The notes beneath the pieces are model-generated. The model saw nothing but the letters and a program-made list of their open reading frames with translations, did no database searches and was not told the DNA's origin. A stretch of DNA of 64,000 nt from Escherichia phage vB_EcoM-fFiEco06, in the sequence record NC_054914.1, one strand, 5' to 3'. Both the position numbers and the translations under genes were made by a program. This document shows, one piece after another, positions 19,322 through 39,274 of this stretch; position 1 is the stretch's first letter, and every line of letters begins with the position of its first letter.

Positions 19322-19346
19322 TTTGTGTTCCTCCGTAGTTGATAGT

Positions 19347-19379
19347 TGTATAGTACCACAGAGGAACAGTCTTGTAAAC
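19347..19379 (-). promoter_or_regulatory. T4-type early promoter
   Basis: Minus strand GTTTACAAGACTGTTCCTCTGTGGTACTATAC, followed by GGAGGA RBS. Confidence 0.55.
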
Positions 19380-19381
19380 CA

Positions 19382-19696
19382 CTAAAAGAAACTTCTTTCA
19401 CAATTTTTTCCACTGAACCATGCGCTTACCGCTTTCTTAGTCTCAGGAGCAGTGTTATCCATAAACCATTCAAAGGCAGCCTTTTTATGATTCTGGAGGG
19501 CTTCTCGGGCTTTAATCTGCTCACGGTCTATTAACACTAACATATGAGCCTTTCTTGTCACCATGGGCTTCTTATGATTTTTTGAATACTCCCAGTCATT
19601 TGTCCATCGCATTGTCGTTGCGAACTTAAATACTGCTTCTTTAATTTTAGTTTCGTAAATTTCACGAGCCTTTGAGTATAACATCATTACCTCCAT
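19382..19696 (-). CDS. Hypothetical protein
   Basis: 104 aa. Confidence 0.4.
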   Translation of the reverse strand: MEVMMLYSKAREIYETKIKEAVFKFATTMRWTNDWEYSKNHKKPMVTRKAHMLVLIDREQIKAREALQNHKKAAFEWFMDNTAPETKKAVSAWFSGKNCERSFF

Positions 19697-19786: not shown

Positions 19787-20773
19787 TTATTTCAGAAGAG
19801 TAACCTCAGCGATTTCTTCCCAACCGTTTTTGTCGGTCATAATAAAGTCAGCAAGATAAAGAGCAGTACGCAGTGAAACATTGCGTAAACGATTAACATT
19901 AACTTTCATCCATGATAATGCTTTATAAGTTTCTTCATCAGAAAGACCGCGCTTTTGCATCATGTCGGTTGAAAGAATAACATCTTCAACCCTGACCATA
20001 ATTTCTTCATTAGTGTGAACACCCAAATCTAAATAAACTGAGCGGGACACTAATGCTTGTAAATGTGGAGCAAGTTTAGTACCACGGTCTAATTCGCGGT
20101 CAATATCAACGTTTGTGATAAAAACAATCGTTCCTTTAAATTCAAACTCACGCTCAATGCCTTTTTCTTCTAAGTAAGAAGATGCAGTGCTCCAGCAGAC
20201 TTTACGGGTCTCTCCAGTGTCCAGAGCAGCTTTCAGAAGATTAAGAATGTCCATATCAGAGAAAACATCCACATCATCAATCAAAAGGACAGAATTCTCT
20301 TCACGATTATTCCAAAGTTGTTCATAAAGACCGATACCGGAGATTTTACCGTTAATGCTTTTATATTCAATGTATCCATTATCATTTGCTTTATTCAAAG
20401 CTTTATCTAAAGAATACGTTTTACCAATACCCGCCGCACCAGAGATAATTAATGAACGAATGTTTCCGTTAATAATACCATTCGTCATCATTCCCATAAC
20501 ATTAAATCTTTTATTAATGCGGGTTTTCATATCTTCATATGATTCTTTAACTTCTTCAACTTTTACACCATCATATGAAATGTCTGATTTGTAAACCCAA
20601 ACACCGCGACGCTTACCGTCAATTTCAACAAAAACTTTACCATCTCCTTGTGCATCTACCGGAGCATTATCTGGGAACCATTCACCTAAGAGCTCAAAAG
20701 TTCCAGAGATTTCTTTACCGAAGTAGATACCCTTATTGATAGTTACAGTTTTCATTTTATTCTCCAATCTCAC
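19787..20773 (-). CDS. P-loop ATPase (AAA-like) with N-terminal extra domain
   Basis: 328 aa; Walker A GAAGIGKT, Walker B VLLIDDVD. Confidence 0.6.
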   Translation of the reverse strand: MRLENKMKTVTINKGIYFGKEISGTFELLGEWFPDNAPVDAQGDGKVFVEIDGKRRGVWVYKSDISYDGVKVEEVKESYEDMKTRINKRFNVMGMMTNGIINGNIRSLIISGAAGIGKTYSLDKALNKANDNGYIEYKSINGKISGIGLYEQLWNNREENSVLLIDDVDVFSDMDILNLLKAALDTGETRKVCWSTASSYLEEKGIEREFEFKGTIVFITNVDIDRELDRGTKLAPHLQALVSRSVYLDLGVHTNEEIMVRVEDVILSTDMMQKRGLSDEETYKALSWMKVNVNRLRNVSLRTALYLADFIMTDKNGWEEIAEVTLLK

Positions 20774-20789
20774 ATTTGTTTTGATAGGG

Positions 20790-20821
20790 TAATAGTATCA
20801 CACTACTACCCTTCTGTAAAC
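20790..20821 (-). promoter_or_regulatory. T4-type early promoter
   Basis: Minus strand GTTTACAGAAGGGTAGTAGTGTGATACTATTACCCT. Confidence 0.55.
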
Positions 20822-20824
20822 AAT

Positions 20825-21088
20825 TTATTTTAACGTTCGCCAAATTTTTACTGCTTCACGGCGAGATACTTCTACAGCTCCAAGTTCTACAGCTTTTTGG
20901 CGTCGGCGAGCGTGTAAGTCATAATGTTTAATGCGTTTATCTTGAAACCAAGAACGTTTCATTCCTATTGCTTCTGCCATTTCATGAAGCTCTTCAATAT
21001 CTCCATCAGTGAACATATGACAATTTTTAGTTGGATGACCGCGAAGTTTCCATCCATGATTCATTAAAACATCTACGTAAACTGTCAT
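20825..21088 (-). CDS. Small conserved protein (resembles a bacterial DUF4031-type domain)
   Basis: 87 aa; HMFTDG...EELHEMAEAIGMKRSWFQ...HYDL motif. Family assignment from memory. Confidence 0.4.
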   Translation of the reverse strand: MTVYVDVLMNHGWKLRGHPTKNCHMFTDGDIEELHEMAEAIGMKRSWFQDKRIKHYDLHARRRQKAVELGAVEVSRREAVKIWRTLK

Positions 21089-21303
21089 TGATTCTTCTCC
21101 AAATAAGTTTCGATAATTTTCTGAGCGAGATAAACTGCATTATCTTCAGTTGCATCTTCTAAGAAACTTTCAAAACACTCTGAAATTTCTTCTGTATCAA
21201 TCAACTTTTTTACTTCAATTGGTGTAATTTTCATTTTGTTTTTCCGTTTAAGTGTTTGTTTTGATAGTTGTATAGTACCATAAAGCTTTATGCTTGTAAA
21301 CAA
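21085..21303 (-). CDS. Hypothetical small protein
   Basis: 72 aa; the 5' end overlaps a predicted promoter, so the start may be internal. Confidence 0.35.
   Translation of the reverse strand: MFTSIKLYGTIQLSKQTLKRKNKMKITPIEVKKLIDTEEISECFESFLEDATEDNAVYLAQKIIETYLEKNQ
21270..21301 (-). promoter_or_regulatory. T4-type early promoter
   Basis: Minus strand GTTTACAAGCATAAAGCTTTATGGTACTATAC; adjacent to the terminator at 21318-21349. Confidence 0.55.
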
Positions 21304-21317
21304 TTTTGTGAAAAATT

Positions 21318-21349
21318 TTTGAAATAAAAAAGGGAGCCCGAAGGCTCCC
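21318..21349 (-). terminator. Rho-independent terminator
   Basis: GGGAGCC-UUCG-GGCUCCC followed by UUUUUUAUUU on the minus strand. Confidence 0.7.
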
Positions 21350-21351
21350 TA

Positions 21352-22365
21352 TCATTTATAATAACTTCGGTGGTTTTCAAGATAAACCCTCTCAAGGAAG
21401 TCATCCCAAAAACCCATGTCTACTTTTTGCTGCATACCGTTCTTAGAAGCTTCAGTAGATGCTGCTTCTACTTGATCGACCACATCTTCCAAAAACTCTT
21501 GAACCGTTTTAAATGGATGTTTACCCAACTTCACGTCGAGAATAAATGGAGCATCTTGGAGTGGATAAACCAAGTCACCAGTTTTGTAAATTTCCAATAG
21601 TTGGAGTCCACCACGGCAAGCATGACTCAGAGCTTTCCAGTCAATACCTTCATTGGCTTCGGCCTTACGAGCACGTTCACCGTATTCAGCATCTAATTTG
21701 TTCAGTGACTGCTTAAGCTCAATAAGAGAAAGCGTTGTCTGATATTTACGACCCAACACTGTGTAGAACGTCTGTGGGCCTGTTTTCTCATGATTATGGA
21801 ACACCCATTCACAGAATTCGTTTTCTGGAAGACGATGCTTAATATCTTCAACTTTAGTACGACGCTGCTTAATAGAACCATCTTCTTGGTAATCAACCCA
21901 TTGCTCAGGGATTTGATTAACTACTTTCAATACATCACGTAATGCAGCCAAACGAGAACCCTTAACGCCGTATTTAGAAGCTTGCTTACGGACATATCCT
22001 AAATAGGATTTCATGTTAGTCGTATAAAAACGAGAACGGTTGTCTTGAATAAACTTCCACACATCAGGCAAATCAGATTTAACCACTAGTTCAGGTGGAG
22101 TGTGAAGCATATCTAACGCTACAGTTTCACCATCTGCTGCTAATTTAAAGAAATATTTAAGACTGTATAGTTCATGGTCAATATCATCTTTAGTGTTTTT
22201 AGATGATGTGTTGTTAGTGTTTTTACTCATGTGCTCTTTAACATTTCCGATAAGAATATCACGAGCAGGAGGAACAAAGATTTCTTTAAAATCTACATCA
22301 GATTCTGGGGTAGAAGTTCCATAAAGATGACTACCAAAATAGCTTTTCATTACTGTTTTCATCAT
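21352..22365 (-). CDS. Nucleotidyltransferase-fold protein (Pol-beta superfamily-like)
   Basis: 337 aa; N-terminal GSHLYGTSTPESDVD matches the hG[GS]x(9-13)DxD pattern. Confidence 0.5.
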   Translation of the reverse strand: MMKTVMKSYFGSHLYGTSTPESDVDFKEIFVPPARDILIGNVKEHMSKNTNNTSSKNTKDDIDHELYSLKYFFKLAADGETVALDMLHTPPELVVKSDLPDVWKFIQDNRSRFYTTNMKSYLGYVRKQASKYGVKGSRLAALRDVLKVVNQIPEQWVDYQEDGSIKQRRTKVEDIKHRLPENEFCEWVFHNHEKTGPQTFYTVLGRKYQTTLSLIELKQSLNKLDAEYGERARKAEANEGIDWKALSHACRGGLQLLEIYKTGDLVYPLQDAPFILDVKLGKHPFKTVQEFLEDVVDQVEAASTEASKNGMQQKVDMGFWDDFLERVYLENHRSYYK

Positions 22366-22823
22366 TCAGCCTTATATTCAATAACAGGACATACTTTAGC
22401 TTTACGAGCTTTTAAAAATTCAACGATAATCGATTTCTTGGGTTGAATAGGAGGTAAACCTTTATACGCCCTATCAATATTTTCTACGTGTAAAGCATAA
22501 TCCTTTTTCCATTTATAATCTTTATATTTTTCACGCAGTTGTGCAGGAATAACAAATGAACCGATAATAAGTAAAACAAGCAAAATGGCAAGTATAAATG
22601 CTGATGGAATAAGAGTCCATAAACTACCAAAAATAAGCCATTTCTGTATGATTTCTGCGCAGATGATAGTTAGACCTACGAGTATAGTACATCCGAAAAA
22701 AGAAACGAAAAATGTAGGGATAACAATAGACCAAAAGTATGCGCACAGCGTCTTAGGTCGTTGCCATTCATCGTTAAACAATTTGAATAATTTATAGTGC
22801 CAAGAGTTTTCATTAATAATCAT
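22362..22823 (-). CDS. Membrane protein
   Basis: 153 aa with 2-3 hydrophobic helices. Confidence 0.5.
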   Translation of the reverse strand: MIINENSWHYKLFKLFNDEWQRPKTLCAYFWSIVIPTFFVSFFGCTILVGLTIICAEIIQKWLIFGSLWTLIPSAFILAILLVLLIIGSFVIPAQLREKYKDYKWKKDYALHVENIDRAYKGLPPIQPKKSIIVEFLKARKAKVCPVIEYKAE

Positions 22824-22825
22824 AA

Positions 22826-23347
22826 TTATCCTTTCATTGAAGGTGTAACAGTTGTTAAATACTTAATCATAGCTTCAGCTTCTGATTTTGATAATGAAAT
22901 TTCTTCATTGTTTTGACGAATAGAAATAAAATCCGGATGACGGTCACCACCAGCTTTTAAAACACACATATAAGTATCAGTTTCATCTTCAATATCTGAA
23001 ATGATTGAAGCAGTTCCACATGAATGCGGTTTTTGATAAATCAATACAGCTTTTCTTCCGCCATTTGACTGTTCATAAACTTTTAATACATCAAACAAAT
23101 CACTTCTTTTATCAATAGCTAAAATGTTATTTTCATCTTCAATGTTAAATCCTTCGGATACTTCATAAAGTGTCACCCATAAATCGCCAATATCAATAAC
23201 AGCGTTCACTTTTCCATGACTTTCAAGAGCATGACAAATTTTCTTGATTTCGTCATAACTCATTTTAATAATATCATCTCCTTGAATAAGAAAGATGTCA
23301 TTTTTAAATTCAACACGAATTAAACCACTTCCACTTGAAATAAACAT
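22826..23347 (-). CDS. Hypothetical protein, paralog of 23354..23911
   Basis: 173 aa; C-terminal SKSEAEAMIKYLTTVTPSM resembles TKDEAIALKTYLDSVIPTM of the neighbour. Confidence 0.5.
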   Translation of the reverse strand: MFISSGSGLIRVEFKNDIFLIQGDDIIKMSYDEIKKICHALESHGKVNAVIDIGDLWVTLYEVSEGFNIEDENNILAIDKRSDLFDVLKVYEQSNGGRKAVLIYQKPHSCGTASIISDIEDETDTYMCVLKAGGDRHPDFISIRQNNEEISLSKSEAEAMIKYLTTVTPSMKG

Positions 23348-23353
23348 ATTTCC

Positions 23354-23911
23354 TCACTTTGAAATCATAGTTGGAATGACAGAATCGAGATAAGTCTTTA
23401 GCGCAATAGCTTCGTCTTTGGTAAATGTGACAATATACGATCGAAAATCATCAATTTGACGAATAGTTAAGACATCACCATCTTCATAGCATTTTGATAC
23501 GTTTAAAACAGTTTCATCATTCTGATTGCAAGCGTTAGTAATAATAGCATTGCAATTTTTGAGCCATTTTAAACTATGTTTTCTTTCATTAGAATAATAA
23601 AAATATTTAATCTTATCTATAAAACTATCCCAATGGATAACTGATAAACACATTGACTCACTTTTAATATTAAATCCTGGGCATGAAGAATAAAAATGAA
23701 TTTTGTGCTCATCATTGATGCTTACTATTTTATCAGTATAAGGATATTCAATTTGGGTTAAATGAATGATTTCACTAGGCGTAAAATATAGCATATCGTC
23801 TTCTTGTGTCAAACGATACATATTATTTACTTTTTCTATAGCTAATTCACCAAAAAGCGGACTAACTTCTAATACTAATCGTTTCATATTGATTCTCTTC
23901 GACTCACCCAC
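23354..23911 (-). CDS. Hypothetical protein, paralog of 22826..23347
   Basis: 185 aa; GTG start. Confidence 0.5.
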   Translation of the reverse strand: MGESKRINMKRLVLEVSPLFGELAIEKVNNMYRLTQEDDMLYFTPSEIIHLTQIEYPYTDKIVSINDEHKIHFYSSCPGFNIKSESMCLSVIHWDSFIDKIKYFYYSNERKHSLKWLKNCNAIITNACNQNDETVLNVSKCYEDGDVLTIRQIDDFRSYIVTFTKDEAIALKTYLDSVIPTMISK

Positions 23912-23913
23912 AA

Positions 23914-24018
23914 TTACATACTCCTTTGAATAATATCAATAATGTTGTTCACCAGATTATAAGTAAACATTGGATAATTATATTGAATCATCACATACAC
24001 AACAAACAAAACTTTCAT
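23914..24018 (-). CDS. Small hydrophobic peptide (about 34 aa)
   Basis: Hand-found ORF MKVLFVVYVMIQYNYPMF... preceded by AAGGAG and the promoter at 24036-24076. Confidence 0.3.
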   Translation of the reverse strand: MKVLFVVYVMIQYNYPMFTYNLVNNIIDIIQRSM

Positions 24019-24035
24019 TCTCTTCTCCTTGGCAG

Positions 24036-24076
24036 TTGACAAGATTACTATATCATAATCTTGTCAACTTGTAAAC
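24036..24076 (-). promoter_or_regulatory. Early promoter candidate within a 12-bp perfect inverted repeat
   Basis: GTTGACAAGATT...AATCTTGTCAAC palindrome; minus-strand GTTTACA upstream. Confidence 0.4.
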
Positions 24077-24241
24077 CATTAAATGACGTTTTCAATAAAA
24101 TTCTGAAGCTTTGTGTGAGCATCAACCATGATTTTCATTTCTTCTTTGGCGAAAGCTGTACCTCTTTCCCGAGAAGAACACTCATAGTCAGAAACTGCAT
24201 TAGCATATTCTTCAATTAGTTTCATTAAAAACATCTGCTTT

Positions 24242-24436
24242 TCAGTTTTCATTGTTCCACCTAATCATTTCAAGATATTGAACTAACTTAGCTTTAGATT
24301 TATCCAAATCCTTTTTAGCTGCTTCTATACCATCGTATGAATATCCTTCACAATGCTCAACTGCTAATTGATATGAATCTATTTCAATATCACGTGCTAA
24401 TTTAATGATTTTTTCAAACTGTTCGCGTGTTAGCAT
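24242..24436 (-). CDS. Hypothetical small protein
   Basis: 64 aa. Confidence 0.4.
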   Translation of the reverse strand: MLTREQFEKIIKLARDIEIDSYQLAVEHCEGYSYDGIEAAKKDLDKSKAKLVQYLEMIRWNNEN

Positions 24437-24438
24437 AC

Positions 24439-24678
24439 TTACACTCTCGTATTATGATCGATAATTTCATCAAGAAACATATCTAACGCTTCTATAGCAT
24501 TATCAACTTTAGCTTCAAGTTCTTCAGCGCCTTTATTTGCAATGCCTGCCGAAAACCAAGCAAAGTCACTAAGTTCCTCATCTGCTTTGCGAATTAAAGC
24601 TACCAATTCTTTAATTTTATCTGCTTGTTCAATGCTAGTCATTATTCCACCACATATGAAAGAGAGAATATTGCACAC
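24439..24678 (-). CDS. Hypothetical small acidic protein
   Basis: 79 aa. Confidence 0.4.
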
Positions 24679-24830
24679 GCCATATGAGTTGCAGCTTCAT
24701 CACACATATCATAACGTTTCTTAAGAAGTTCTACAAGTTCTTCACTAGTAACTTCATCCATGTCGACGAAAAAATCACCATTAATGATGACGTAGATATT
24801 TCCTTCTTGATTAAGTGCTTCAATTTTCAT
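24642..24830 (-). CDS. Hypothetical small protein
   Basis: Start moved to Met16 (RBS AAAGAGGAGAA), downstream of the promoter at 24855-24888. Confidence 0.4.
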
Positions 24831-24854
24831 GATGTTCTCCTCTTTATCCGATAG

Positions 24855-24888
24855 TTGTATAGTATCACAGCTCAAACGGAAAGTAAAC
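24855..24888 (-). promoter_or_regulatory. T4-type early promoter
   Basis: Minus strand GTTTAC...GTGATACTATAC; adjacent to the terminator at 24895-24920. Confidence 0.5.
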
Positions 24889-24894
24889 CGGTAA

Positions 24895-24920
24895 AATGAA
24901 AAAAGTCTCCCGAAGGAGAC
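24895..24920 (-). terminator. Rho-independent terminator
   Basis: GUCUCC-UUCG-GGAGAC followed by UUUUUUCAUUUU. Confidence 0.65.
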
Positions 24921-24925
24921 TAATG

Positions 24926-25312
24926 TTATTCGAGGGAAAGAAGATACTTACTCTGGTAAAACATTCCAGTAATATCATCTATCGTGCTTTGAATGGCTGG
25001 AGGCATTTCTTTATAAATGCTGTTAGATTGGTCTAGTATGCGATCAATCATTTTAATTGTGTCGGTAGGAAGTTTACTGGCATCTGGAATTGAAGGCGTG
25101 TATTTTCTACCAGAATACCCCAAATATTGCTCACCAAATTTATCAATCAAATCTGGCAATTCGGAGAAAATAAAATCGTATGCTTTGTGTCTAGCATAAC
25201 TTTTAGTTTCAAAATGCGCAGAATGAAAATAAGCTTGTGCAGCCATTAATAAACCTAAGTATTCATCTGCCTTTGAAGGTTTTCCACTTTGTGAAAAGTC
25301 GCTGAATTTCAT
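24926..25312 (-). CDS. Hypothetical protein (rI.1 position)
   Basis: 128 aa, directly downstream of rI. Confidence 0.45.
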
Positions 25313-25602
25313 TCAGTCTCCAATTTAATGTTCATAATTCTAGCGTATGATTGTGCCATCTCCGCGCCTCGTTCTATACATTCAAAATCAGAAGAGCACG
25401 GGTCATTTTTATAGGTCGTTCTCATAAAACTATAGAACTGTTCAGATGATTCTACGCTTTTATTTTCAAAAAGCATATAAACATGTCTAATACCAGATTC
25501 CATAAATTTATCAAAATGAGGATCGACATTCGCTTCAATCGATGGAGATAAAACAAATGACAATCCTAGCATGGCAAATAGTGCCGTTGCTTTTAAGGCC
25601 AT
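25309..25602 (-). CDS. rI: Lysis inhibition regulator RI (antiholin)
   Basis: 97 aa; N-terminal signal-anchor MALKATALFAMLGLSFVLSPSIEA; matches T4 RI as recalled. Confidence 0.85.
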   Translation of the reverse strand: MALKATALFAMLGLSFVLSPSIEANVDPHFDKFMESGIRHVYMLFENKSVESSEQFYSFMRTTYKNDPCSSDFECIERGAEMAQSYARIMNIKLETE

Positions 25603-25614
25603 AAAGGCCTCCTA

Positions 25615-25827
25615 TCATTTTTGTCCTGTATTTACTTTATGCCGATGCACGGCCTTAACTTTATCAAGGTATTTTTCAAAATTTCGCAATCTAGTATAGT
25701 CTGCCGGAGATTGATTGAGTGATACTTCTCGACGCAAAGCTGAAATGATATTTCCAACTTCCCTACGAATTTCATCTAATTGAAGCACAGTAAGATTGCG
25801 AAGTTGCTTTTCAGTTAATTGTAGCAT
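25615..25827 (-). CDS. Hypothetical small protein
   Basis: 70 aa between tk and rI. Confidence 0.4.
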
Positions 25828-25869
25828 ATATACCCCTTTAGTTAGATAAACCTATTTATAACTTTTGCA

Positions 25870-26451
25870 CTAACCGAGCTTTTTAGTTAATTCATTCCAA
25901 TGTTTTCTACACAAAGAAACATAAATTTCATCACCAATACAGATTTGATTACCTTCTTTAACTGGTGTTCCATCTTCCATTAATCGAGCTGTCATAATCG
26001 CTTTTTTACCACAATGACAAACTGCTTTTAATTCAATAAGTTTATCTGCAATCGCTAAAAGTTCTTTAGAACCTTCAAATAATTTTCCAGCGAAATCAGT
26101 CCTTAATCCATAAGCCATAACAGGAACATTATATGTATCAACAATTCGACTTAATTGATGCACTTGTTCAGTTTTTAAAAACTGAGCTTCATCTACAAAT
26201 ACGCAATGAATATCTTTTTGTGCTTCAGCCCATTTATAGAACTCGAAAATATCCATATCATCTGTAATAATATTCGCTTCCTGTTTAATTCCAATGCGAG
26301 AAACAACTTCACAGACAGAATCGCGAGTATCAATAGCAGGCTTAAGAACTAATACACTCATTCCACGTTCTTTATAATTATGTGCAGCAGTCAAAAGAGA
26401 AGCAGATTTTCCAGCATTCATTGCTGCATAAGTAAAAATTAAACTCGCCAT
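25870..26451 (-). CDS. tk: Thymidine kinase
   Basis: 193 aa; P-loop AMNAGKS and C-terminal CHCGKKA...C zinc motif. Confidence 0.92.
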   Translation of the reverse strand: MASLIFTYAAMNAGKSASLLTAAHNYKERGMSVLVLKPAIDTRDSVCEVVSRIGIKQEANIITDDMDIFEFYKWAEAQKDIHCVFVDEAQFLKTEQVHQLSRIVDTYNVPVMAYGLRTDFAGKLFEGSKELLAIADKLIELKAVCHCGKKAIMTARLMEDGTPVKEGNQICIGDEIYVSLCRKHWNELTKKLG

Positions 26452-35710: not shown

Positions 35711-35743
35711 TGTATAGTACCATGGAAGAACAGGGATGTAAAC
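35711..35743 (-). promoter_or_regulatory. T4-type early promoter
   Basis: Minus strand GTTTACATCCCTGTTCTTCCATGGTACTATAC. Confidence 0.55.
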
Positions 35744-38600: not shown

Positions 38601-38633
38601 GTAATAGTATCACTACCCTATCTAAAAGTAAAC
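38601..38633 (-). promoter_or_regulatory. T4-type early promoter with 9-bp inverted repeat around the -10
   Basis: GATAGGGTA ... TACCCTATC flanks the -10 ATACTATTA. Confidence 0.55.
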
Positions 38634-38867
38634 TTATTTTTTACGAAAAATTGATTTATTTTCTGCTGCCCATTTTTCAATAACTGCAGCAGGACCAGTA
38701 ACAACAATTTTATCACCGTAATCTTCTGCGGCGAGTTGACCGAAATTATCTAATGCATCACGAAGAACTCCATGAGGCATTTCACCCATTTTATCTTTCT
38801 TGCCAGTGTAAATAAACTCAACTTTTACATCAGCAGTTTCAGCAATAAATTCTTGGTAAGTTTTCAT
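38634..38867 (-). CDS. Internal protein (ip-like) with canonical capsid-targeting sequence
   Basis: Start taken at the second Met: MKTYQEFIAE matches the T4 capsid-targeting sequence as recalled; own early promoter. Confidence 0.55.
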   Translation of the reverse strand: MKTYQEFIAETADVKVEFIYTGKKDKMGEMPHGVLRDALDNFGQLAAEDYGDKIVVTGPAAVIEKWAAENKSIFRKK

Positions 38868-38898
38868 TTTGATTTCCATTTGGTTTTGTTTTGATAGG

Positions 38899-38931
38899 GT
38901 AATAGTATCACAACTAAAACCCTATGTAAAC
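38899..38931 (-). promoter_or_regulatory. T4-type early promoter with inverted repeat around the -10
   Basis: ATAGGGT ... ACCCTAT flanks the -10; drives the ip-like gene at 38634-38867. Confidence 0.55.
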
Positions 38932-38943
38932 AACTTTGTGAAA

Positions 38944-39201
38944 TTATTTTAAATCTTCTAATCGTTTCTTCATCTTAGAGCCATTTTTAGCAATTTCTCC
39001 TGCATCGGAGCATAATGCTAAAAGTGCTTTAACTTTAGTTTGGTCTCCTTTAAAAGATGAAGGATCGACCGCAGCAGCAAGTTCTTTAATACGAGAGAAA
39101 AGACGCTCAGCTTCAGCTAAAGCCATTCCAAGCTTTACTTCCATACCGTGGGAAGATTCAGTGATAGTAGTTTTTGTAGCAAACTCTTTGAAAGTTTTCA
39201 T
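38944..39201 (-). CDS. Internal protein (ip-like) with capsid-targeting-like N-terminus
   Basis: 85 aa; MKTFKEFATKTTITE with an I-x-E cleavage-type motif; own early promoter. Confidence 0.5.
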   Translation of the reverse strand: MKTFKEFATKTTITESSHGMEVKLGMALAEAERLFSRIKELAAAVDPSSFKGDQTKVKALLALCSDAGEIAKNGSKMKKRLEDLK

Positions 39202-39229
39202 TTTTATTTTCCTAATTAATTTTGATGAG

Positions 39230-39262
39230 GTAATAGTATCACTACCTCATCAGTATGTAAAC
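39230..39262 (-). promoter_or_regulatory. T4-type early promoter with 9-bp inverted repeat around the -10
   Basis: GATGAGGTA ... TACCTCATC flanks the -10; compensatory changes relative to 38601-38633. Confidence 0.55.
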
Positions 39263-39274
39263 AACTTTGTGAAA

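Follow-up and report, generated by a model that had tools for sequence, protein, structure and literature searches.

Two predicted terminator-promoter cassettes flanking the nrdC.11 to mobD.5 genes of an Escherichia phage: a probable recombination junction and a fixed boundary

Promoter-early stem-loops (PeSLs) of T4-like phages were described by Arbiol et al. 2010 (PMC2839356) and by Comeau, Arbiol & Krisch 2014 (PMC4122927), and PeSL x PeSL circles have been demonstrated experimentally in phages RB49 and phi1 (PMC2839356). The text of the 2014 paper gives the PST/T4-type consensus as a stem-loop directly upstream of TTTACW-N17-TAYWAT, leaves the question "homologous or site-specific" open, and makes no mention of nrdC, mobD or modB (PMC4122927). 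We analyzed a 64,000-nucleotide (nt) stretch of Escherichia phage vB_EcoM-fFiEco06 (NC_054914.1), hereafter the window, which is 100% identical to Escherichia phage vB_EcoM-fHoEco02 (MG781191.1, Tequatrovirus; record position = window position + 32000). An earlier note on this DNA had placed an early promoter and a strong hairpin at 21270-21349 and again at 24855-24920, had likened them to the recombination-prone boundaries described in T4-type phages, and had proposed that they bracket a variable gene module where T4 carries mobD. We call these units cassettes A and B. The interpretation is partly supported. Comparison with relatives makes it likely that transcription punctuation has been reused here as homology patches for module exchange, with cassette A a junction, cassette B fixed, and the interval from A to B not a unit of exchange.

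Both cassettes were found where the earlier note had put them, to within 1-5 nt, with full extents of 21272-21350 for A and 24859-24921 for B. By their sequence both fit the PST/T4-type consensus and belong to the published PeSL class. Their parts are the following.

21331-21350, minus strand: cassette A hairpin, predicted intrinsic terminator after nrdC.11; AGGGAGCC-UUCG-GGCUCCCU, then a T6 run
21295-21330, minus strand: cassette A T-run, AT-rich tract and -35 hexamer (36 nt), the putative crossover zone; duplicated around the ModB-like module in ACG-C40
21272-21300, minus strand: predicted cassette A early promoter, TTTACA-N17(TG)-TACTAT, heading the 49-amino-acid (aa) open reading frame (ORF) and the DUF4031 gene
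24904-24921, minus strand: cassette B hairpin, predicted intrinsic terminator after rI.-1; AGUCUCC-UUCG-GGAGACU, then a T6 run
24859-24887, minus strand: predicted cassette B early promoter, TTTACT-N17(TG)-TACTAT, heading mobD.5 to mobD.2a

The hairpin of cassette A has 8 bp, 6 of them GC pairs (free energy change, dG, -17.7 kcal/mol; z-score -4.1 against shuffles), and is conserved in T4, T2, ACG-C40, GEP001, NBEco003, Bas43 and 303Ecol101PP. That of cassette B has 7 bp (dG -10.8 kcal/mol; z-score -5.1) and is identical in all seven Tequatrovirus loci scanned. The stems of both start with AG and finish with CT, which fits the loose description AGNA-loop-TCNT. The -35 hexamers are TTTACA (21295-21300) in A and TTTACT (24882-24887) in B; the -10 hexamer is TACTAT in both (21272-21277 and 24859-24864), and the 17-nt spacer of A contains TG. 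The tract from hairpin to -35 measures 30 nt in A (TTTTTTATTTCAAAAATTTTTCACAAAATT) and 16 nt in B (TTTTTTCATTTTACCG), the latter being shorter and less AT-rich. At its 3' end, cassette B (GAGGAGAACATCATG) provides the Shine-Dalgarno sequence and start codon of mobD.5, and cassette A (ACGGAAAAACAAAATG) leads into the start of the 49-aa ORF with a weak Shine-Dalgarno sequence. T4 and the nine other close relatives examined all have both cassettes, and both hairpins are annotated as terminators in the D5505 record. In Rfam, the best match at the hairpins was L20_leader with 27.1 bits (gathering score 58.7), and none came near threshold. A strict scan for TTTACW-N16-18-TAYWAT over the whole 64 kb returned 14 matches, 13 of them on the minus strand; a strong hairpin with a T-run directly precedes only the two matches of cassettes A and B.

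The minus strand carries every gene between 19 and 27 kb. In order of transcription these are tk, rI.1, rI, rI.-1, cassette B, mobD.5, mobD.4, mobD.3, mobD.2a, a hairpin-less promoter (24047-24075), mobD.2, mobD.1, the genes for a 173-aa and a 153-aa protein, nrdC.11, cassette A, the 49-aa ORF, the DUF4031 gene, a further promoter (20792-20820) and nrdC.10. The slot between nrdC.11 and nrdC.10 is where content changes in association with a cassette, and in this phage it holds one module.

20768-21260, minus strand: variable module downstream of cassette A, comprising a leader, the 49-aa ORF (21085-21234), the DUF4031 gene (20825-21088) and its own downstream promoter (20792-20820)

This module is absent from T4, ES12, NBEco003, GEP001 and Pu-Krd-SF1, and 303Ecol101PP and Bas43 have a 66-aa ORF instead. 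A BLAST search with the junction 20980-21640 covered about 498 records with ≥90% identity; the junction was intact in only 135 of them, and most of the others begin at 21231 or 21261. Nucleotide alignments distinguish at least five states of the slot.

Empty, one cassette: T4, ES12, NBEco003, Pu-Krd-SF1
Empty, with a 38-nt deletion of the AT tract and -35: GEP001
66-aa ORF: 303Ecol101PP and Bas43, 120 records in all
49-aa ORF and DUF4031 gene: this phage
49-aa ORF, DUF4031 gene and ModB-like ADP-ribosylase gene: ACG-C40, VEc20

In ACG-C40, the ModB-like gene lies between 37-nt exact direct repeats that consist of T-run, AT tract and -35 (CTTTTTTATTTCAAAAATTTTTCACAAAATTGTTTAC). The upstream copy combines hairpin A with a new spacer and -10, and the downstream copy combines a different hairpin (GGGGGCCCTAGAGGTCCCC) with the spacer and -10 of cassette A. 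These reciprocal chimeras are the product expected from a crossover inside the cassette. A ModB-like module occupies the slot in 44 records from at least three genera. It is accompanied by the DUF4031 module in ACG-C40, VEc20 and G4500 and occurs without it in T2 and UFV-AREG1, so that the two modules appear to assort independently. In the Citrobacter phage Moon (Moonvirus) and the Salmonella phage STML-198 (Gelderlandvirus), the module is 93.7-94.9% identical to that of ACG-C40, against only 76% for the adjacent nrdC.10 and 67% for the adjacent nrdC.11. Its homology starts exactly at the -35 GTTTAC in four genomes of three genera. The DUF4031 module is 92-95% identical to Karamvirus sequences (CC31, AS6) over ~20950-21235, against ~70% in the flanks, and the 66-aa ORF is 96.9% identical in mar005P1, the nrdC.11 of which is 81.5% identical. 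The ModB-like cargo (161 aa) corresponds in PHROGs to phrog_832 (RNA polymerase ADP-ribosylase); Pfam returned no matches for it or for the 153-aa protein. With at least five slot states and the chimeric repeats of ACG-C40, the claim of a recombination-prone boundary is borne out for cassette A, and these sequence comparisons provide good support for its use as a junction across genera.

Several further observations concern the same slot. GEP001 (locus L008, 2468-2531) keeps the hairpin and -10 of cassette A and has lost the AT tract and -35, a 'half PeSL' as in PST. In STML-198 (L016, ~1725-1790), the module hairpin has been cut short and runs into a T4-type nrdC.10 leader (TATGATACTATACAACTATCAACTGATACGGATTCGGAGAATAAAAT) ahead of an unrelated 59-aa ORF; a leader of this type downstream of the module suggests that the donor was Tequatrovirus-like. 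A hairpin AACCTCC-TTCG-GGAGGTT is found in identical form at the equivalent slot downstream of nrdC.11 in the Karamvirus phages AS6 and CC31, in Moon and in STML-198 (L013 3536-3553, L014 2385-2402, L016 2385-2402, L017 2245-2262), where the surrounding genes are ~67-77% identical to those of Tequatrovirus.

The pattern at cassette A might instead arise if the cassettes were purely transcription signals, with random illegitimate insertions and deletions of which selection keeps only the intergenic ones that supply or preserve a promoter and terminator. The changes inside the A-B interval, described below, do use other routes (a ~10-nt microhomology in Bas43, ORF-border indels at 23899/23913, and mobD replacing 22367-23328), and cassette B, with full PeSL anatomy, has undergone no rearrangement in ~500 genomes. 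Nevertheless, the perfect 37-nt direct repeat of ACG-C40 with its reciprocal chimeric halves has the form of a homologous crossover product rather than of random end-joining, module homology begins at the same -35 nucleotide in three genera, at least three unrelated cargoes have entered the same slot independently, and circles from PeSL recombination are known experimentally from RB49 and phi1. We consider selection on its own an unlikely explanation.

The exact coincidence of module boundaries with GTTTAC in Tequatrovirus, Moonvirus and Gelderlandvirus, despite differing AT tracts, could also suggest that exchange at A is site-specific, for example through a nuclease, or through breakage associated with the transcription complex, at the hairpin or -35; the PeSL authors allowed for either mode. 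However, the cargo includes no recombinase or nuclease gene (it consists of the 161-aa ADP-ribosylase-like protein, the DUF4031 protein and small ORFs), and the other module ends vary, falling at the hairpin and T-run, at the -10 and leader, or in the Shine-Dalgarno region. Since the -35 is also the end of the conserved sequence, BLAST homology would stop there under either model. Site-specific exchange is in our view extremely improbable.

Some observations weigh against homology-driven exchange at cassette A. The exact repeat flanking the ModB-like module is only 19 nt in T2 and 8 nt in Moon, as selection alone would also allow; a long repeat is thus not a general feature, and these genomes may have lost it by decay or never had it. 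The left end of the DUF4031 module is a hairpin-less promoter and not a full PeSL. Selection could account for part of the breakpoint clustering at cassette A, if intergenic DNA alone tolerates insertions. Finally, the nucleotide-level alignments cover ~17 loci, and the other counts are summaries of BLAST coverage.

Cassette B gave a different picture. The junction 24560-25220 was searched with BLAST in about 500 records with ≥90% identity and was intact in 498, and no exchange at cassette B was seen within Tequatrovirus in this set. The recombination-prone character attributed to it by the earlier note is not supported among these close relatives. Cassette B is 97.9-98.9% identical in ten relatives and lies between the following genes.

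24926-25312, minus strand: rI.-1 (DUF5856), the gene ending at the cassette B hairpin
24079-24830, minus strand: small ORFs mobD.2a, mobD.3, mobD.4 and mobD.5, the first genes after the cassette B promoter

Outside the genus, only rI.-1 aligns at this position. CC31 has a different hairpin and promoter after its rI.-1 homologue, followed by unrelated genes (p101-p108 in place of mobD.2 to mobD.5), an arrangement suggesting that the position is a conserved boundary between genera. Identity is 92.6-97.2% downstream of B and 98.2-99.2% upstream of it in 10/10 comparisons. We did not count this step as evidence of exchange, as relaxed constraint on the small ORFs explains it equally well. Within 24079-24642, mobD.3 and mobD.4 both match phrog_653, and mobD.4 and mobD.2a weakly match phrog_4859 (tk.1-like, labelled 'helicase loader'); from these shared matches the small ORFs downstream of B look like tandem paralogs.

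The model of the earlier note requires more than two cassettes of one class. In it, A and B are matched recombination-prone repeats and the ~3.6-kb interval between them (nrdC.11 to mobD.5) is exchangeable, the T4 version carrying mobD. The two cassettes do share architecture and orientation, the interior content does differ among relatives, and the genes just downstream of the B-equivalent position are wholly different between genera, as in CC31; the fall in identity downstream of B and the viability of a T4 nrdC.11-mobD.3 deletion (PMC9825161) would also agree with this model. When the cassettes were aligned with each other, as that note had proposed, no specific repeat pair emerged. Their longest exact shared block is 15 nt at the -10 (TACTATACAACTATC), and the alignment shares in addition the CCTTCGGG loop and the T-run. 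This 15-nt block recurs in the hairpin-less promoters at 19350-19378 and 35714-35742, with which cassette A has 20-21 nt in common, more than with B. An unbiased repeat search placed 19339-19398, 21261-21320 and 24848-24907 in one family, within which cassette B diverges most. The window contains 5 copies of the AT-tract/-35 core of A (TTTCACAAANTTGTTTAC) against 0.44 expected, and cassette B is not among them. We therefore rejected A and B as a matched repeat pair on pairwise and multiple alignments, longest common substring and repeat search, all of which place them in a dispersed early-promoter family. A hairpin-less promoter also lies inside the interval.

24047-24075, minus strand: internal hairpin-less early promoter, TTTACA-N17-TATAGT, upstream of mobD.2

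The genes of the interval are as the earlier note had described them: a nucleotidyltransferase-like gene, a membrane protein, a paralog pair and small ORFs (mobD.2,.2a,.3,.4 and.5).

21352-22365, minus strand: nrdC.11, RlaP-family nucleotidyltransferase-like, 337 aa (PF10127, E = 2.4e-11), an anchor gene kept across genera
22367-23328, minus strand: segment replaced by mobD in T4-type genomes, with a 153-aa membrane protein (22362-22823) and a 173-aa y05I-family paralog (22826-23347)
23354-23887, minus strand: mobD.1, y05I family, 177 aa, paralog of the 173-aa protein
23899-23913, minus strand: interior indel site without a cassette; ACG-C40 has a 441-nt, two-ORF insertion, and in NBEco003 23489-23912 is replaced

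The 153-aa protein belongs to phrog_944 (membrane protein). The 173-aa and 177-aa proteins are 27% identical (E = 1e-9), and both have the y05I N- and C-terminal domains.

T4 does carry mobD here. It matches the window over 21261-22366 and 23329-26451, and has mobD (a 259-aa ORF annotated as a homing endonuclease, L003 3586-4365) instead of 22367-23328. Apart from that segment, the T4 interval is shared at 89-96% identity. One breakpoint is the start codon of nrdC.11 and the other lies 18 nt into the 173-aa ORF. Both are ORF borders with no promoter or hairpin, and neither is at a cassette, where the bracketing model would have put it. Edgell et al. 2010 described mobD as a free-standing HNH endonuclease gene that lacks a promoter and has its insertion site between nrdC.11 and mobD.1, with activity and target given as 'ND' in their Table 1 (PMC2988022). 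The window has no HNH endonuclease ORF between these two genes; its 153-aa and 173-aa ORFs there represent the mobD-less allele. This allele of membrane protein and y05I paralog is the majority form (421 records), and RB69 also has a membrane-protein gene at this position. By comparison, mobD is a minority allele found in 47 records, all ≥99% identical, which, set against flanks of 89-96%, fits a recently spread selfish gene. Compared with T4 homing-endonuclease cassettes, mobD replaces two genes rather than filling a bare intergenic site. On these alignments, the difference between T4 and the window is a separate homing-endonuclease replacement and not a cassette event.

Other interior changes also have their ends away from the cassettes. 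In Bas43 (TadeuszReichstein; L011 5098-5388), a 1.7-kb deletion of 22988-24680 lies at a ~10-nt microhomology (CAGTTTCATC/CAGCTTCATC) and joins the 173-aa ORF to mobD.5, creating a 96-aa fusion ORF. This deletion is illegitimate recombination and not cassette-mediated. None of the interior breakpoints (22366/23329 for mobD, 23488/23913, 23899/23913 and 22987/24681) lies at A or B. Exchange or deletion of the whole interval was not seen in any sampled record when we searched the BLAST listings of 682 records, taking the best-ranked entries and an even sample. Two kinds of low-coverage Tequatrovirus record were considered as candidates for interval loss and set aside: Bas43, with its internal microhomology deletion, and teqdroes, a record-end artefact. 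Content in and around the interval thus differs among relatives, as the earlier note expected, but in no sampled relative is the A-B interval exchanged or missing as a unit, and the cassette-linked modules lie inside A and downstream of it (20768-21260), outside the proposed bracket. Moreover, nrdC.11, the membrane protein and mobD.1 remain linked in different genera as the other content varies. Together with the near-invariant junction B and the weak resemblance of A to B, this makes it very unlikely that the two cassettes work as a pair in exchanging the interval.

We favour instead the reuse of transcription punctuation as homology patches, which would operate as follows. The CUUCGG hairpin with its T-run would terminate the upstream early transcript, and the strong sigma-70 early promoter would immediately restart transcription. 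Near-identical copies of the T-run, AT tract, -35, -10 and +1 blocks occur at many sites of the genome and in different T4-like genera, and this near-identity would make the blocks portable homology patches. Phage homologous recombination may then use the patches to insert, delete or swap short modules headed by cassettes. At cassette A, cargoes appear to have been exchanged repeatedly, also between genera (the ModB-like ADP-ribosylase, the pair of 49-aa ORF and DUF4031 gene, and the 66-aa ORF), with crossovers located in the AT tract/-35 block and in the -10 and leader. The interior differences would have a separate origin, in invasion by the promoterless HNH gene mobD, short-homology deletions and ORF-border indels. 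A bolder version of homology-patch reuse would make the nrdC.11|nrdC.10 slot a cross-genus Tevenvirinae landing pad for host-takeover or counter-defence cargo (the ModB-like ADP-ribosyltransferase, the DUF4031 protein and small ORFans) carried as self-contained promoter-gene-terminator cassettes, with crossovers focused at the -35/AT-tract by a targeted mechanism, possibly a transcription- or hairpin-associated break. We think this quite unlikely.

As a discovery the locus carries little weight, because PeSL patches have been published and T4 itself carries both cassettes. It provides a clean, nucleotide-level case of PeSL-type exchange at nrdC.11|nrdC.10, in which cargo is ~94-97% identical between genera with flanking genes at 67-81%. 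It also indicates that PeSL anatomy alone does not predict plasticity, given that B is fixed in ~500 genomes, and that comparison with T4 is confounded by the homing-endonuclease replacement. Phage engineers may find in the cassette A slot a naturally permissive site for insertions.

Two observations were made beyond the cassettes. At 38604-39274 (minus strand), three early promoters within ~700 nt share 18-33-nt exact blocks among themselves, and 28 nt are also common to the one with its -35 at 38930 and the promoter ahead of nrdC.10 (20792-20820). Another hyperplastic, PeSL-rich region probably lies here. In GenBank records matching 19787-25312 of the window, product names have been propagated wrongly: NrdC.x ORFs are called 'thioredoxin', mobD.x ORFs 'molybdopterin-guanine dinucleotide biosynthesis protein MobD', and rI.-1 (DUF5856) 'starvation-inducible transcriptional regulator'.

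As an analogy only, the cassette A slot resembles integron gene cassettes, in that one conserved slot gathers unrelated small cargo bounded by repeats across lineages. Unlike integrons, it has no integrase and no attC or attI, each cargo has its own promoter, and general homologous recombination is the probable route. Closer likenesses are found among T4-like phages. The promoters resemble T4 early promoters in their GTTTAC, TG-extended -10, conserved ACAACTATC downstream and AT tract upstream, and the hairpins resemble T4 CUUCGG-hairpin terminators in their 7-8-bp GC-rich stem, UUCG loop and U-run. T4 has both cassettes at the same positions with identical hairpins and no structural difference. 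Relative to published PeSLs, cassette B differs in having no associated rearrangement inside its genus, with adjacent genes neither inserted, deleted nor replaced among close phages and no chimeric or duplicated copies around cargo, and the A-B pair differs in showing no sign of recombining. Terminator-promoter cassettes that serve as recombination patches in T4-like phages are already known, both as elements and as a mechanism, from the publications of 2010 and 2014. Both cassettes share with PeSLs the succession of stem-loop, AT-rich tract, TTTACW-N17-TAYWAT, Shine-Dalgarno sequence and start codon, and the location in the hyperplastic nrdC-tk region. Cassette A shares more: it flanks ORFan-type cargo that is inserted, deleted or replaced among close relatives, it exists in a degraded 'half' form in GEP001, and its insert is flanked by duplicated chimeric cassettes, as published for RB49 ORF192 and PST ndd.4/.5.

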